Positions 316-6,692 of a DNA stretch of 9,709 nucleotides are shown here, piece after piece. The position numbers and the translations under genes were made by a program. This stretch comes from a virus (taxonomy: Duplodnaviria > Heunggongvirae > Uroviricota > Caudoviricetes): IMG/VR virus record IMGVR_UViG_2529292908_000016; one strand, written 5' to 3'. Numbering within the stretch: the stretch's first letter is position 1; each line of letters opens with the position of its first letter. The notes under the pieces are model-generated. The model did not search any database. It worked only from the letters and a program-made list of their open reading frames with translations, and had not been told where the DNA came from.

Positions 316-701
316 GGTGACAGCCCCTATGTTGAATTCAATGAACTCACCACCAAGGCTTTCCACGACCATATAGGTGGTGAGACGTACAGGGGTGGAA
401 ATACCGGTCAACATAGAACCCGGCCCAACCGAAGTTGGCCCTGCACGCCCCACCATAATTTGGGCGTAACGATGCTCATGACACGAAAAAACCGCATGAG
501 CGCGGTTGTGCTCTATATTGAATTTCGGGTTTCCACGCCCGGCACCCGCTTTATAAGGTGCAGAGACAGTGTAACGTCCCGAAATTGCAGAATCAATATT
601 TGGTCTTGAAATGATCATATAGCTGCTGATATCTTTAGAACTGTTCTTGGATGTTTCAGAGCCGTTTTATGCGAAACAGCTCCCCGTTATTGATGTTGAG
701 T

Positions 702-1658: not shown

Positions 1659-1769
1659 TCTTTAGTCTCACACCAGATACTTTGTTATCCAACGATGTTA
1701 ACCACAGGAACCCAAAGTATCAAGAAATTCTGTTACTTTAGTATCAACAGCCATGAGAGGAGAAGAAAA
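1659..1769. promoter_or_regulatory. Divergent control region between the leftward operon and the CI-like repressor gene, with repeated operator-like motifs
   Basis: Motif CAAAGTATC at 1713..1721 (plus), its reverse complement GATACTTTG at 1676..1684, and a degenerate copy TTTAGTATCAA at 1737..1747. Candidate leftward promoter read on the minus strand: TTGATA, 17-bp spacer, TAACAT, overlapping the motifs. Confidence 0.5.
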
Positions 1770-2426
1770 ATGAAGTCTTTAGGTGAACGTCTCATCAACG
1801 CACGGCAAAAAGCTGGGTTAACACAAGATGCGTTGGCTAAAAAAGCTGGGGTCACCAGAGTTGCAATCAGTAAAGCCGAGCAAGGCCTTACAAAAAGTTT
1901 CAACGGTGACACCCTTTTTAAAGTTGCAGCTGCACTGCGGTGTTCACCGCAGTGGCTTCAGAACGGAGATGAAAAAGATAAGCATTGGGAAAATAATGTT
2001 AAGAGCTGCCCACAGAGAGACACAGCACACTCTTACCCTGTAATTAACTGGGTTCAGGCAGGATTATTCGCAACTTCTGGTGATGACTACAACATGTATG
2101 ATCAGGATAATTGGAGGCATTCTGTAAAATACGCTGGTGAGAGGGGGTTCTGGCTGGAAGTGCACGGAGACTCAATGACTTCGCCCGTAGGAATAACATT
2201 TCCTGAAGGAATGTCGATCCTTGTCAACCCAGATAAAGAAGTTTTTTCAGGGTGTTACGTCATCGCCAGAAAAAAATCTACCAATGAAGCAACATTCAAA
2301 AAATATATTTCTGACATGGGAAAGGCGTTTCTAAAGCCCCTTAATCCACAATATCCAATCATAGAAATGGACAATGATTGCGAAATAGTAGGTGTTGTGG
2401 TTGATGCCAGGTGGGATATTTTCTGA
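1770..2426 (+). CDS. CI/LexA-like phage repressor: N-terminal XRE-type HTH plus C-terminal S24 peptidase (autocleavage) domain
   Basis: Strong Shine-Dalgarno GAGAGGAGA 6 nt before ATG at 1770 (the track ORF begins further upstream at 1695 on a weaker start). N-terminus MKSLGERLINARQKAGLTQDALAKKAGVTRVAISKAEQG is a classic HTH. C-terminus has the S24 hallmarks: an Ala-Gly linker (VQAGLF), GDSM serine motif and a downstream Lys (ARKK). Confidence 0.85.
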   Translation: MKSLGERLINARQKAGLTQDALAKKAGVTRVAISKAEQGLTKSFNGDTLFKVAAALRCSPQWLQNGDEKDKHWENNVKSCPQRDTAHSYPVINWVQAGLFATSGDDYNMYDQDNWRHSVKYAGERGFWLEVHGDSMTSPVGITFPEGMSILVNPDKEVFSGCYVIARKKSTNEATFKKYISDMGKAFLKPLNPQYPIIEMDNDCEIVGVVVDARWDIF

Positions 2427-2529
2427 CCAGACACAAAACACAAAAAGAAACCAAAGTATCAAAAATCACTTGCCACGCCTTGATACCTTAGTTACCATAA
2501 AACAAAGTTCGTAACTGAGGTATCATCTC
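2427..2529 (+). promoter_or_regulatory. Intergenic regulatory region with operator-like motif and candidate sigma70 promoter for the downstream HTH gene
   Basis: CCAAAGTATCAA at 2451..2463 is a near-identical copy of the site at 1712..1723. Inverted half-sites GTATCAA (2457..2463) and TTGATAC (2480..2486). Candidate promoter TTGCCA (2470..2475), 17-bp spacer, TACCAT (2493..2498). GAGG Shine-Dalgarno at 2517..2520. Confidence 0.35.
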
Positions 2530-3033
2530 ATGATCAATAAAGCTACAACTCTTGACTGTCTCGAAGAACTGAAAAACCTCGGCAGCCTCATTACACTAAT
2601 AGCAAAAGCAACACCTGATGCTACGCTCTCTAGCGATATAGAGTCATGCGCAGGACTGGCATGGGATATGACAAATAGCATATCCAGAAAGCTATCGTCA
2701 GCAATGCTTTTACAGAACAAAAATTCTGCAATCAACAACCGTCTTCGCACCCAACGCGAAGCCTGCGGCTTAACAACCGCCGAACTCGCCAGGCTGCTCG
2801 ATCTCGATGAAGAAATTATCATCCAGTGGGAGAGCGGAGAGTATGAACCAACTATCAGTATGCTTATCCCACTGGCAAATATTCTTGGCTGCGATCCGAT
2901 GTGGCTGTTAACTGGTGAGGTTACTCCTCCGGAGCAACCAAAAAGTGAGGAGCAGCAACACCATGACGCATCTCAACAAGTTTGCCCCTTATCTCGCGAA
3001 GCTCTTCTGCGGAAGAACCAATACCAATGGTGA
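2530..3033 (+). CDS. XRE-family helix-turn-helix DNA-binding protein (167 aa) with an unrecognised N-terminal region of about 65 aa
   Basis: HTH_XRE signature in the C-terminal half: INNRLRTQREACGLTTAELARLLDLDEEIIIQWESGEYEPTISMLIPLANILGCDPMWLLTGE. Same strand and immediately downstream of the CI-like repressor. Confidence 0.7.
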   Translation: MINKATTLDCLEELKNLGSLITLIAKATPDATLSSDIESCAGLAWDMTNSISRKLSSAMLLQNKNSAINNRLRTQREACGLTTAELARLLDLDEEIIIQWESGEYEPTISMLIPLANILGCDPMWLLTGEVTPPEQPKSEEQQHHDASQQVCPLSREALLRKNQYQW

Positions 3034-3161: not shown

Positions 3162-3527
3162 ATGAAAAAGTTCGAAAACATAACTGTTCTCCATGTTGAT
3201 GACTTTGATTATACAAACCCGGAACTTCTCCCGGAGGTTGTAAAGGCAATAGATGTTGCCGATATAGTGATTAGAGAAAAGAGAATTGTCAAAAACAGGC
3301 TCGCATGCACTTCAGGAGCAATGACAGAAACAACCTCACAGCAAGATAATTACGAAGGCATTTGTCTGGAGCCTGATTCATTTGCGGTAAATGTTTATCA
3401 TTTATTGCATGCAACACAGGTATTACATATGTCCAGTAATCACGAAACGAAAACACTCGGCAGCGAAATTCTGAGTTTTGCATGTGAGTATACAAAAGCT
3501 GCTGCCGAAAAAGAATTAGCGCAATAA
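3162..3527 (+). CDS. Hypothetical protein (121 aa)
   Basis: ORF with GAGGAAG Shine-Dalgarno just upstream of ATG at 3162; no recognisable motif. Followed by an inverted repeat CGCAATAA...TTATTGCG and a T-rich tract. Confidence 0.55.
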   Translation: MKKFENITVLHVDDFDYTNPELLPEVVKAIDVADIVIREKRIVKNRLACTSGAMTETTSQQDNYEGICLEPDSFAVNVYHLLHATQVLHMSSNHETKTLGSEILSFACEYTKAAAEKELAQ

Positions 3528-3565
3528 CAACAAATATGCCCTGAACGTTTATTGCGGTTTTATCG
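3520..3565 (+). terminator. Possible weak terminator or attenuator: 8-bp inverted repeat CGCAATAA/TTATTGCG with a large loop, followed by GTTTTAT
   Basis: Stem arms at 3520..3527 and 3549..3556; the 21-nt loop is long and the U-tract is interrupted, so termination efficiency is doubtful. Confidence 0.2.
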
Positions 3566-3605
3566 CCGGGGATTGTTACAACCTTAATCCACAGGAGGCT
3601 TTATT

Positions 3606-3719
3606 GTGACTTTTATAAAGAATATGGCATCACACAAGACCGCCTGCCTTATTGCACAATACGGTGAAAATCACATGCATATTGCCTGCTTATTTCTGCG
3701 TAAAGCATACGGGAGATAA
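3606..3719 (+). CDS. Hypothetical small protein (37 aa, GTG start)
   Basis: Canonical AGGAGG (3593..3598) 7 nt upstream of GTG at 3606; stop TAA at 3717..3719 lies 2 nt before the next gene's ATG. Below the ORF-track size cutoff. Peptide: MTFIKNMASHKTACLIAQYGENHMHIACLFLRKAYGR. Confidence 0.25.
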   Translation: MTFIKNMASHKTACLIAQYGENHMHIACLFLRKAYGR

Positions 3720-3721
3720 TA

Positions 3722-3922
3722 ATGCATCAGAAAACAGCAGAACACGAACAAACCAGAGTATTGCTGACCATCAAAAACGGGAAAGTAATATTCATTCGCC
3801 ATGTTCATGACGATGAACTTGTAGGAACTCTTTCAACATTCCTGTTTATTGCAGAAAAGGCAGGATATGACGTTATTGCACCAGCAGATGAAGATGAAGA
3901 TGAAGATGAAGATGAGGAATAA
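3722..3922 (+). CDS. Hypothetical small protein (66 aa) with a poly-acidic C-terminal tail (DEDEDEDEDEE)
   Basis: GGGAGA Shine-Dalgarno 5 nt before ATG at 3722. The C-terminal tail is encoded by a (GATGAA)4-GATGAG tandem repeat. The next gene starts 5 nt after the stop. Confidence 0.6.
   Translation: MHQKTAEHEQTRVLLTIKNGKVIFIRHVHDDELVGTLSTFLFIAEKAGYDVIAPADEDEDEDEDEE
3887..3916 (+). repeat. Tandem hexanucleotide repeat (GATGAA)4 plus GATGAG inside a CDS
   Basis: Read directly at 3887..3916; in frame, encoding alternating Asp-Glu. It also supplies the GAGGAA Shine-Dalgarno for the downstream gene. Confidence 0.9.
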
Positions 3923-3927
3923 ATATC

Positions 3928-4509
3928 ATGCAATACGATGAATTCCAGGCTGAAGCAACAGCCAATGGTATACGAACTGGCAGTATGACGATTGATTATC
4001 ACGACGCCATACGTCGTCTGGATGCCGGAGAATTCGATACTCCTAATGTGCGAGGTTTACGTATCCTTCAGTGTCTGGCGCAAGCCGACGAAGCAGGATT
4101 ACTGGGTAAACTTCCGGTTGAGATGAAGGTTGCTCAGTGGCGATGGTTGTATGTGACGACATTCATCAACGAAGAAGAAGACAAGAACGGCACAATTGAT
4201 ATCCTGAATGAACACGGAACAACTGAACACGCCGTGGTATATAACGGGATGTATGGGTTTATGACGATATATCCCGGCCCCATTCGATTTGCCTTACAAC
4301 AGTATATTGAATGGAATTTAATTCAAAAATACGGCGAAGCTGAAGGAATGGGAAGAGCGCTGTTTCTTTATCAGAAAATGCTCACTACTTCCCCTGATAA
4401 AGGTTTCATTCTTTCAGATATGGGGCGAGAAGGGCTTGAAATCCTTCTGGATGAAATTATTAACGAAATGAATACTCATGGCATGCAATCCGAAACAGAT
4501 ATTAAGTAA
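3928..4509 (+). CDS. Hypothetical protein (193 aa), function unknown
   Basis: GAGGAA Shine-Dalgarno 8 nt upstream of ATG at 3928; tightly spaced after the acidic-tail gene; no motif I can recognise. Confidence 0.7.
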   Translation: MQYDEFQAEATANGIRTGSMTIDYHDAIRRLDAGEFDTPNVRGLRILQCLAQADEAGLLGKLPVEMKVAQWRWLYVTTFINEEEDKNGTIDILNEHGTTEHAVVYNGMYGFMTIYPGPIRFALQQYIEWNLIQKYGEAEGMGRALFLYQKMLTTSPDKGFILSDMGREGLEILLDEIINEMNTHGMQSETDIK

Positions 4510-4519
4510 AAGGGACCAC

Positions 4520-4768
4520 ATGACCGTTATCGAGTATATCCAGGAAAATCCAGATTGCAGTAGAGAAGATATATCCCTCGCACTTGGAAGAAGCGCAACT
4601 TCTATCAGTAATGAATTATCACGGTTATTGTGGAATGGGTTAATAGTACGAACTGGAGAAAAAAACAAAACGATTCTGTACTGCGTAAACAATCTGCCGT
4701 TTGGATACAGCAATCCCCTAAGTGTTATGTTCAACCAGTTACTTAAACAGGTAAGAAATGGCAACTGA
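4520..4768 (+). CDS. Small putative winged-helix DNA-binding protein (82 aa)
   Basis: AAGGGA 5 nt upstream of ATG at 4520. Segment REDISLALGRSATSISNELSRLLWNGLIVRTGEKNKTILY is compatible with helix-turn-helix plus a beta-hairpin wing. The 3' end overlaps the next gene start by 11 nt. Confidence 0.55.
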   Translation: MTVIEYIQENPDCSREDISLALGRSATSISNELSRLLWNGLIVRTGEKNKTILYCVNNLPFGYSNPLSVMFNQLLKQVRNGN

Positions 4769-5343: not shown

Positions 5344-5515
5344 CTATCAGGCACTGCGCGAGGCGGCGGAACAGGCAACGCAAGATGAATGGGTAGCATA
5401 TATTTTGCCGGGTCATAACGGCATTTATCCTGCGCGCACGTCTGAGGGTAGGCATTGTGCGGATACTTTATTGACTGGCCTGGCGTCTGTCAGGGGCGGG
5501 AGAGCATCAACATGA
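5330..5515 (+). CDS. Short ORF (61 aa) carrying an Ead/Ea22-like N-terminal module; possibly a gene fragment
   Basis: AAGGAGG plus GTG start; the first ~17 codons (MSKIDYQALREAAEQA) are paralogous to the start of the 6015..6692 gene. Stop overlaps the next ATG (ATGA). Confidence 0.4.
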   Translation: MSKIDYQALREAAEQATQDEWVAYILPGHNGIYPARTSEGRHCADTLLTGLASVRGGRAST

Positions 5516-6018
5516 GCATCAGAACCTACGCAGTGAATTGCAATGACGCATGGCTAAACACCGAAGGTGATGACATCTCCGGCTCATACGTTAAGTACAA
5601 AGACCATCAGGAAGTGGTTGCCGCTCTTGAGGCCAAGTGCGCGGCGCTGGCAGCGGAGAATGCGGGAATAAAGTCTGCAATTCCAGAATCACGGGATATT
5701 GAAGATGACAATGACAATATGGATGACGTATCTCTCGCGGAAGACTTCGGGTTCAATCATGCAATAGAACGGATGAGGAGACAGATACCTGAAACGCCAA
5801 CCACTGATGCTTTCCTGGCTGAAGTCCGGGCGCAGGGGGTGGATGCTGCTATAGAAGCTGCAAAAAATCTGGTGGCCCAAGAATATGAGTATAAGGATTT
5901 CAAAGCGGCGCAGAGTGATTGCTGTATGTACCCTGGTTCAGACCTGGTAGGGAAGGTTGAAATGACTGAGTGGTTAGTTGACTTTGCTGCCCAGCTTCGC
6001 AAAGGAGGCAACCAGTGA
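5512..6018 (+). CDS. Hypothetical protein (168 aa) with an Ala-rich predicted coiled-coil segment
   Basis: GGGAGAG Shine-Dalgarno 7 nt before the first ATG (5512) of track ORF 5455..6018. Segment HQEVVAALEAKCAALAAENAGIKSAIPE. Stop TGA overlaps the GTG start of the next gene (GTGA). Confidence 0.6.
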   Translation: MSIRTYAVNCNDAWLNTEGDDISGSYVKYKDHQEVVAALEAKCAALAAENAGIKSAIPESRDIEDDNDNMDDVSLAEDFGFNHAIERMRRQIPETPTTDAFLAEVRAQGVDAAIEAAKNLVAQEYEYKDFKAAQSDCCMYPGSDLVGKVEMTEWLVDFAAQLRKGGNQ

Positions 6019-6692
6019 GCGAAATTAATTACCAGGCACTGCGTGAGGTGGTGGAACGTGCAATTCCAGCAATGGAACGCCTGTTAATGTTGCCAGTTGA
6101 TGATGATTTGTTAAGTGAACAGGAACTTAAAGATTACGGTGTGGATATTGATGCGCTCAACGCCTTCAAATTTCTGACCGGACCAGAAACCGTGCTGGCA
6201 CTGCTGGATGAGATCAACGCATTAGAGGAAACGCGTATCAACGATGTTTGCCGTATTGCGGAACTAACAAAACAACTGGAGTTGGCAAAATCAAAACTCA
6301 ACGAGCAGCGTGAGTATTACGAAGGTGTTATCTCGGATGGAAGTAAGCGTATTGCTGAACTGGAGAAAAGCGAAGAGCAACTCATTAACGAGCGTGACCA
6401 TGCTGAGTCTGCTTTAGCTGATATGTATTTTGCAGCAACCGGGGATAGGCCTGAGTGGAGTAACTGGTTCGGTTTTTCAGATGCAGTAGATGCCGTAGTT
6501 GACAGAATTGCTGATTTAGAAGCTAAACAGCCATCGCCAGTAGTACCTGAAGGACTGATTAAAGCGGTGCGTTTTTATGAGCAGGTAAAACGTGAGAACC
6601 CGCCAGTCGAAACCGGAGCATGGAAAGACGCTGTTGACTGGGTGCTCAAAGAGGCTTGCCAGGCTGTAAACATTGGCATCAAAGGAGAGTGA
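6015..6692 (+). CDS. Ead/Ea22-like family prophage protein (225 aa), coiled-coil rich
   Basis: AAGGAGG 7 nt before GTG at 6015. N-terminus MSEINYQALREVVERA and the coiled-coil middle (LTKQLELAKSKLNEQREYYEG...ELEKSEEQLINER) match my recollection of the Ea22-like family. This is a recalled family assignment, not a search result. Confidence 0.65.
   Translation: MSEINYQALREVVERAIPAMERLLMLPVDDDLLSEQELKDYGVDIDALNAFKFLTGPETVLALLDEINALEETRINDVCRIAELTKQLELAKSKLNEQREYYEGVISDGSKRIAELEKSEEQLINERDHAESALADMYFAATGDRPEWSNWFGFSDAVDAVVDRIADLEAKQPSPVVPEGLIKAVRFYEQVKRENPPVETGAWKDAVDWVLKEACQAVNIGIKGE

Follow-up and report, generated by a model that had tools for sequence, protein, structure and literature searches.

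The closest described counterparts of the gene considered here are small prophage antirepressors. GftA, GfoA and GfhA bind the non-cleavable Gifsy repressors, in a complex that is probably A2B2, and upon binding the repressor leaves the DNA; the antirepressor has no DNA binding of its own, and for GftA the authors prefer to explain the release by a change in repressor conformation, not by competition for DNA binding (PMC3121763). Purified antirepressors of the GftA/GfoA kind aggregate (PMC3121763). FsoA, encoded in the left operon of Fels-1 between STM0896 and STM0897 and controlled by the cleavable CI-like repressor FsoR, inactivates the Gifsy-2 repressor (PMC3121763), and Rem, itself discovered through its similarity to GfoA and FsoA, derepresses the DicA-controlled dicBp 165-fold (PMC10448788). 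Repressors of the DicA/GtgR/GfoR type occur in most E. coli genomes (Lemire et al., PMC3121763). In this work we analysed the gene of a 66-amino-acid (aa) protein, together with the hexamer repeat close to its 3′ end, in a stretch of 9,709 nucleotides (nt) of DNA from a virus of the Caudoviricetes (IMG/VR record IMGVR_UViG_2529292908_000016; the whole stretch is hereafter the window, and its features are collected in Table 1).

The protein carries the RefSeq label "hypothetical protein" (WP_000553975.1). From the sequence alone, the original prediction had proposed that its acidic end, variable in length by slippage of the repeat, could be a DNA mimic of the anti-restriction kind or an interaction tail such as that of SSB, and that the protein forms a functional pair with the 193-aa product of the next gene. 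The comparison with the systems above points elsewhere. By analogy with them, we consider it moderately probable that the 66-aa protein is an FsoA-type trans-acting antirepressor, bearing a disordered tail whose length would drift in a near-neutral way. The placement of phrog_340, the family of phiP27 L07, among the Rem/GftA/FsoA proteins appears to be new; it is a placement by homology, within an already known family.

Homology to small prophage antirepressors

Searched against the PHROG families, the 66-aa protein (MHQKTAEHEQTRVLLTIKNGKVIFIRHVHDDELVGTLSTFLFIAEKAGYDVIAPADEDEDEDEDEE in the list of open reading frames, ORFs) matched phrog_340 with an E value of 1.9e-23 and, more weakly, the C-terminal parts of two "anti-repressor" families, phrog_4792 and phrog_2379, which cover its core. 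The path to the named antirepressors led through P0192, a 120-aa protein of the representative library that is a natural tandem duplication of the core (domains of 37 and 30 bits), and which was traced in the phage collection to the Rem of Rac-SA53 and to STM0898.2n, a left-operon ORF of Fels-1. A hidden Markov model (HMM) of the family scored 51.5 bits against STM0898.2n, 34 bits against Rac-SA53 Rem, about 10 bits against K-12 Rem and about 8 bits against STM1020.1n of Gifsy-2, which occupies the GftA position between dinI and irsA. With BLASTP, the 66-aa protein aligned with STM0898.2n at 49% identity over 37 aa (E 1e-9). When the family alignment was compared by hhalign with K-12 Rem, Rac-SA53 Rem and GftA, the probability was 96.7% (E 3.8e-10), and with the Fels-1 protein included in the set it reached 98.5% (E 3e-15).

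The Fels-1 protein deserves particular attention. It sits between STM0896 and STM0897, the interval to which fsoA has been mapped (PMC3121763), and since it is the sole ORF in or around that interval of the left operon that GftA matches, STM0898.2n is very probably FsoA. The 66-aa gene matches fsoA in sequence, size and genomic position. Like FsoA (Lemire et al. 2011, PMC3121763), it encodes a small single domain from an early-left position 3′ of a cleavable CI-like repressor, and in both cases several small ORFs lie between the repressor gene and the small gene. The Fels-1 protein differs in its longer N-terminus, in the absence of an acidic repeat tail and in the gene that follows it, and it has a 119-aa upstream partner that is absent in the window.

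The resemblance extends to the other members of the class. Rem of Qin (Ragunathan et al. 2023, PMC10448788) and Rac-SA53 Rem have the core motif hENGxhh ... hxxFhxxxxxxGa in common with the family, but neither K-12 Rem nor Rac-SA53 Rem has an acidic tail, and rem lies outside the left operon, in the nin/Q region beside hok and irsA. K-12 Rem (83 aa; locus L028, 3652..3903) carries, with respect to Rac-SA53 Rem (58 aa; locus L025, 4001..4177), an insertion of ~25 aa, placed after the hairpin of the core and before its helix, and for this reason single-sequence searches link it weakly. GftA, GfoA and GfhA are likewise small proteins, inactivating short non-cleavable repressors, and their core alignment is weak but correctly placed; they differ in their control by a LexA box, in their site between dinI and irsA and in a pairwise similarity that is marginal (8 bits). 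A LexA box is absent upstream of the 66-aa gene; of the 5 matches with one mismatch that the window contains, against 3.4 expected by chance, all are located elsewhere. As regards size, antirepressors of this class are single domains of about 58-83 aa, a range that includes the 66-aa protein with its ~45-aa core plus tail, and hhalign and BLASTP both find the expected sequence homology. As for location, the gene lies outside the immunity region in what its sequence context suggests to be a DNA-damage-switched unit, where control would be of the fsoA type.

Conserved core and spread of the family

A profile search retrieved 133 relatives in E. coli, Klebsiella, Salmonella and Raoultella, and an exhaustive HMMER scan with the core over 1.84 billion representatives returned 21, nearly all of 53-81 aa. 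The exceptions in size were the 120-aa tandem duplicate P0192 and a spurious match, a 1950-aa repeat protein that we discarded as an artefact; no fusion of the core to a larger annotated domain was present among the 21 representatives. All of them share a core of ~45 aa with the pattern hLTIENGxVh...E.h.s.DTFhWhAxxAGYxVIxP, and in the alignment of 55 homologues the columns N19, G20, V22, E32, F40, G48, Y49 and P54 are invariant. In the AlphaFold2 (AF2) model built from these 55 sequences, strands 13-18 and 21-27 and helix 37-46 form a block with a predicted local distance difference test (pLDDT) of 88-94, and the pLDDT of the tail is low. The duplication in P0192 is consistent with a dimeric working unit in the single-domain relatives.

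Searches for other kinds of relationship gave little. Pfam had no match for either the 66-aa or the 193-aa protein, and noise was all that it returned across the 55 family members; PADLOC found no defence-system match; and a sequence search of solved structures yielded nothing beyond chance matches to ribosomal protein L4, with an E value of about 0.09, which we set aside.

Two phage relatives, phiP27 L07 and ASU11 gp52 (both phrog_340), are found at the orthologous position with 48-52% identity and are followed by an L06 homologue of the 193-aa gene. Unlike the 66-aa protein, which ends in ADEDEDEDEDEE with the acidic tail DEDEDEDEDEE, both end in AKEQTL and have no repeat. Other homologues end in DLEEIGDINSNTNS (phi467), in NTEKQ or HQEEISGTNSNTHS (Klebsiella) and in IRFEEISNVG (Fels-1). 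The acidic end is confined to an E. coli sublineage with ...APADEDEE, the more distant homologues ending in unrelated short polar tails, and the tail does not belong to the machinery that is conserved.

A polymorphic hexamer repeat

Tandem Repeats Finder (TRF) describes the array near the end of the 66-aa gene as 5.0 copies of period 6, with unit AGATGA, 100% matches and a score of 60, and the remaining rows for the 9.7-kb window are just 2-copy arrays with scores of 30-33. A perfect hexamer array of 30 nt cannot have arisen by chance in 9.7 kb. The perfect array of the original prediction is thus real, but its placement at 3887..3916 was off by one: read in that codon register, GATGAA occurs four times and is followed by GATGAG, which introduces one mismatch in the fifth unit, then by GAA (3917-3919) and the stop codon TAA (3920-3922). 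The result at the protein level is a C-terminal run of eleven acidic residues and a net charge, counted on the sequence, of ~-12, compared with ~-1 for the core. A poly-Ser ORF on the reverse strand (3805..4002) and an out-of-frame MKMK reading, the latter present solely in frameshifted database entries, were both dismissed as by-products of the repeat.

We searched 5426 complete E. coli genomes with a 271-nt query around the 66-aa gene, and 203 matched, 124 of them at full length. The targets correspond to 2 copies of the repeat in about 65 genomes (253 nt), 3 in about 38 (259 nt), 4 in 3 (265 nt), 5 in 12 (271 nt), 6 in 4 (277 nt), 7 in one (283 nt) and 9 in another (295 nt). In 79 further genomes the DNA 3′ of the repeat has diverged; the single one that was read had 2 copies, and the corresponding protein clusters are all of 60 aa. 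Arrays were read directly in 15 loci (L001-L003, L012-L020 and L022-L024), which contained 2, 3, 4, 5, 6, 7 or 9 copies and encode proteins of 60-74 aa. The differences in length were always whole AGATGA units, and every allele read, from 2 to 9 copies, had the constant 3′ end GGAATAAATATCATG. The 9-copy allele, from strain FDAARGOS_1283, encodes a 74-aa protein with 19 consecutive acidic residues. In a collection of 15 billion proteins, the exact 60-aa and 62-aa sequences were each found on at least 1000 contigs, the 64-aa form on 265 and the 66-aa form on 688; the 68-aa and 72-aa forms there were single ones with point-mutated repeats.

Three of the loci are especially informative. L013 (6 copies), L014 (4) and L023 (5) show zero differences in their flanks, over 760 nt on the left and 850 nt on the right, and 5-copy and 6-copy alleles are also found on differing haplotypes, so that slippage must be both recent and recurrent; copy number therefore outpaces point substitution within 1.6 kb. 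The in-frame change in tail length that the original prediction had expected from slippage is borne out by these alleles and by the range of 2-9 copies in complete genomes, and the repeat number among homologous prophages is variable rather than fixed. The 2-copy form is the most common one, and the sole form in the more divergent E. coli sublineages.

Is this then a contingency locus? Close relatives are polymorphic, as would be expected of one, but copy number does not switch expression on or off: the 6-nt unit is frame-safe, and the Shine-Dalgarno (SD) sequence of the downstream gene and its spacing are constant. Related isolates have one allele in common (RIVM series, p11A/p11B, ST131), and the repeat behaves as an ordinary microsatellite, unlike rapid phase variation. 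In-frame coding variable-number tandem repeats (VNTRs) with 6-bp units serve in the multiple-locus VNTR analysis (MLVA) typing of E. coli. With such repeats the locus shares a perfect hexamer array and near-identical strains that differ by frame-safe slippage; it differs from them in its small size, most strains having 2 copies. Searches of the literature turned up neither the RefSeq protein accessions nor a record of this repeat as an MLVA locus.

Genomic context

Table 1. Features of the window around the 66-aa gene
Feature	Position	Strand	Remarks
CI-like repressor, HTH_3 + Peptidase_S24 (self-cleaving type)	1770..2426	+	Pfam; RefSeq "LexA family protein"
Probable early-left promoter/operator	2440..2528	+	TTGCCA-17-TACCAT at 2470..2498 between A(A/G)GTATCA half-sites; judged at the sequence level
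167-aa HTH_3 protein, first left-operon gene	2530..3033	+	HTH 37% identical to the DicA HTH
121-aa ORF, phrog_5451	3162..3527	+	phiP27 L08 equivalent, same length; in RefSeq just the final 207 nt (68 aa) are annotated; start uncertain
66-aa protein gene	3722..3922, stop codon included	+	ATG start; Rem/GftA/FsoA small-antirepressor homologue; phrog_340
Core domain, residues 12-54	3755..3883	+	Beta-hairpin, helix, then AGYxVIxP motif
Perfect hexamer tandem repeat (VNTR)	3886..3915		AGATGA x5 (TRF); in frame GAT GAA, giving the (Asp-Glu)n tail; polymorphic
Shine-Dalgarno-like GAGGA	3914..3918	+	9 nt before ATG 3928; inside terminal GATGAG-GAA, the invariant last unit
193-aa gene, phrog_1515	3928..4509	+	phiP27 L06 homologue

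The stretch 3500..4600 is 99.8% identical to an E. coli chromosome, where the prophage integrase adjoins yecE, and the window is that arm of a phiP27-like or lambdoid prophage which runs from the immunity region to the integrase. On the + strand, the CI-like repressor is followed by the 167-aa helix-turn-helix (HTH) protein, the L08-like ORF, the 66-aa gene (after a non-coding gap of 194 nt, 3528..3721) and the 193-aa gene, beyond which come a winged-helix ORF, DUF4752, Ea22-like genes, the excisionase and the integrase; the divergent genes, on the - strand, are cro-like and Rha ones. A half-site, A(A/G)GTATCA, is present in six copies, in both orientations, in the cro/cI divergent region (1677..1748) and at 2451..2528, and these two clusters are probably the right and the left operators. 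From this arrangement we infer that the 66-aa gene is part of a repressor-controlled early-left operon.

The homologues in Klebsiella, Salmonella, Fels-1 and phi467 occupy the equivalent position, preceded in all of them by a gene of 115-119 aa. A conserved upstream partner was considered and rejected, the 121-aa ORF of the window being unrelated to the neighbours of 115-119 aa in phi467, Klebsiella and Fels-1. The L08-like ORF, the small gene and the 193-aa gene make up a cassette that recurs with hardly any change behind at least three or four different immunity regions (loci L012, L017, L021 and L024 compared with window 1695..3033), which include a LexA-family S24 repressor, an XRE-family repressor, Cro/CI with an HTH protein, and further HTH proteins. 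It behaves like a mosaic module, passing from one prophage to another.

The start codon of the 193-aa gene lies 5 nt past the stop of the 66-aa gene, and the downstream gene is probably translationally coupled to it. The idea that the repeat forms the ribosome-binding site of the next gene holds as far as the overlap with the last unit goes; given that GAGGA falls within the terminal GATGAG-GAA, the site is at the 3′ edge of the repeat, outside its perfectly repeated part, in an invariant end that copy number does not affect. The adjacency of the two genes, with a 5-nt gap or an overlap, is kept in phiP27, ASU11 and close E. coli prophages, the small proteins of phiP27 and ASU11 being about 50% identical to that of the window and the large ones 65%. 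To this extent the proposed functional pair stands, but in phi467, Fels-1, Klebsiella and Salmonella the small gene occurs without the 193-aa gene and with other genes 3′ of it. The model of the 193-aa protein is confident (predicted template modelling score, pTM, 0.81), with no known fold relative. Its kinship with IrsA, whose gene comes after gftA and rem, was also considered and discarded (hhalign probability 2.9%). In the 7-copy strain O111:H21 15A (locus L003, 3608..4576), an IS903B transposase is inserted just 3′ of the 193-aa gene.

Other elements of the prophage can be mentioned here. Matches above the Rfam gathering score were found on the - strand for the C4 antisense RNA (RF01695, 82 bits; window 373..460) and for the Hfq-binding RNA isrK (RF01394, 62 bits; window 485..561), both within the rightward operon, 3′ of its Rha-family gene. 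Next in order, the matching genome has two "ash family" genes and one more Rha gene, which suggests a second antirepressor control module, similar to P1 immI, in the same prophage. At window 5512..6692 there are two neighbouring Ead/Ea22-like genes, of which many related prophages have truncated or frameshifted copies; what separates the early genes from xis/int is thus variable and in decay.

Alternative explanations for the protein and its tail

SSB and T7 gp2.5 have acidic C-terminal tails, and Ocr and ArdA are DNA-mimic proteins. The charge of the 66-aa protein, its eleven terminal acidic residues and its place in an early operon, where phages keep their host-takeover genes, would suit a DNA mimic, an anti-restriction or anti-defence factor, or an SSB-like tail, but strong acidity is the one trait that it shares with those four proteins. 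Its core, a beta-hairpin plus helix, is not an OB fold and is nearly neutral; the acidity resides in a tail predicted to be disordered, absent from distant homologues, instead of in a structured and conserved acidic surface; the end ...DEE, Glu-Glu at its very tip, lacks the hydrophobic tip of an SSB tail; neither sequence nor fold resembles a known mimic; and the comparison with known folds and with defence and anti-defence models gave no match. The protein has, to a large extent, clear homologues of known and unrelated function in Rem, GftA and FsoA. With all this, we find these roles very improbable. We give as little credence to an effect at the level of translation, in which the acidic run would destabilise the ribosome or the purine-rich repeat would set the ratio of 66-aa to 193-aa protein through coupling. 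Runs of Asp and Glu can abort elongation in E. coli (bioRxiv 10.1101/2021.02.02.429294), and the short distance between stop and start, with the SD inside the repeat end, would fit with such coupling; the destabilisation is counteracted, however, once about 30 or more residues fill the exit tunnel, and it is judged unlikely here because 55 residues precede the run, and the SD and its spacing are identical across alleles. It is also improbable, if less so, that the 66-aa protein and the 193-aa protein work together as a module of two genes in a role other than antirepression, for instance as inhibitor and effector, and that the antirepressor homology reflects a shared binding fold and nothing else. 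The adjacency conserved from phiP27 and ASU11 to the window prophage and the mobility of the cassette behind differing immunity regions would fit with it, but phi467, Fels-1, Klebsiella and Salmonella pair the small gene with the upstream gene of 115-119 aa instead, and elsewhere Rem and GftA are encoded beside irsA, which is non-homologous to the 193-aa protein.

A more attractive alternative accepts the antirepressor and gives its tail a task, as a tuning device with which slippage would generate heritable variants of potency or specificity, selected by the repressors of co-resident prophages; the tail could occupy the DNA-binding surface of the repressor, or keep an aggregation-prone protein soluble. 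The 4-, 5- and 6-copy alleles on 1.6 kb of identical sequence, the frequency of expanded alleles (the 66-aa form and its 688 contigs) and the nature of a family that acts on DNA-binding repressors and aggregates when purified, so that an acidic tail could help, all speak for it. Against it, the 2-copy allele dominates and is alone in the more divergent E. coli sublineages, the remaining family does without an acidic tail, GftA works without DNA binding and its authors favour a conformational change (PMC3121763), and the pattern is what mutation by itself would predict for a 6-nt repeat, with alleles that look stable within clones. Overall we regard tuning as unlikely, and a stronger version of it as more doubtful still, namely that tail length is a heritable rheostat of strength or of target among prophage repressors, with slippage rapidly retuning the cross-induction of neighbours. 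If true, the latter would make the repeat a contingency locus in phage-phage crosstalk that is variable in length and not on/off.

The preferred reading, an FsoA-type antirepressor with a near-neutral tail, has several points weighing against it. Annotation everywhere treats the protein as hypothetical and gives phrog_340 no function, and the support comes from sequences and a model. Taken one by one, the similarities to the experimentally proven GftA (8 bits) and K-12 Rem (10 bits) are weak, and the homology is convincing only at the profile level or through the Fels-1 protein, whose own identity with FsoA is drawn from the map interval and the similarity to GftA. Even if the activity is right, the biological role would be obscure, as FsoA is dispensable for the induction of Fels-1 (PMC3121763). 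YpjJ, YeeT and YkfH, which came out of similar searches, failed to derepress dicBp (PMC10448788), and remote homology is not reliable as a predictor of targets. The neutrality of the tail is an assumption on our part, and where a protein strips repressors from DNA, an acidic tail could matter. Finally, this reading does not account for the way in which the 193-aa gene stays next to the small gene in one sublineage.

A model for the putative antirepressor and its repeat

By analogy with the described members of the family, antirepressor activity, target, dimerisation and a near-neutral tail length can be put together in a simple model. In the lysogen, the CI-like S24 repressor would keep the early-left operon silent, the 66-aa gene included. 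The SOS response to DNA damage would lead to the self-cleavage of this repressor, to transcription of the left operon and to synthesis of the small protein, which, probably as a dimer, would bind a short non-cleavable HTH repressor and cause its release from the operator. Repressors of the DicA/GtgR/GfoR type in co-resident prophages would be the likely targets, and the 167-aa HTH protein of the phage itself a speculative alternative. The outcome would be that the induction of several prophages is coupled.

The (Asp-Glu)n tail would be, in the same model, a lineage-specific disordered appendage, grown by replication slippage from an ancestral GATGAAGATGAG (tail DEDEE). Its length may drift between 2 and 9 units given a 6-nt unit that is frame-safe, a downstream SD that is left untouched and a C-terminus that, in this family, appears to tolerate acidic extensions. 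A C-terminal 3xFLAG leaves GftA and FsoA unimpaired (PMC3121763), and since this tag is itself acidic, a disordered acidic extension is likely to be tolerated as well. Such an extension may help solubility; we consider the variation in its length to be near-neutral.

Implications

If the tail is neutral, which we judge most likely, the repeat is an ordinary coding microsatellite, and the locus could be a small typing marker for this group of prophages. It also offers a natural allele series, of otherwise identical proteins with 5 to 19 acidic residues, that is usable to probe the effect of the tail on potency or solubility. For the widespread and "hypothetical" family phrog_340 (phiP27 L07), the comparison provides a testable function, antirepression of the FsoA/Rem type. 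E. coli, Klebsiella and Salmonella carry members of the family in their prophages, Stx-converting ones among them, and trans-acting antirepressors can couple the induction of several prophages, which would have a bearing on the release of Shiga-toxin phages in polylysogens.

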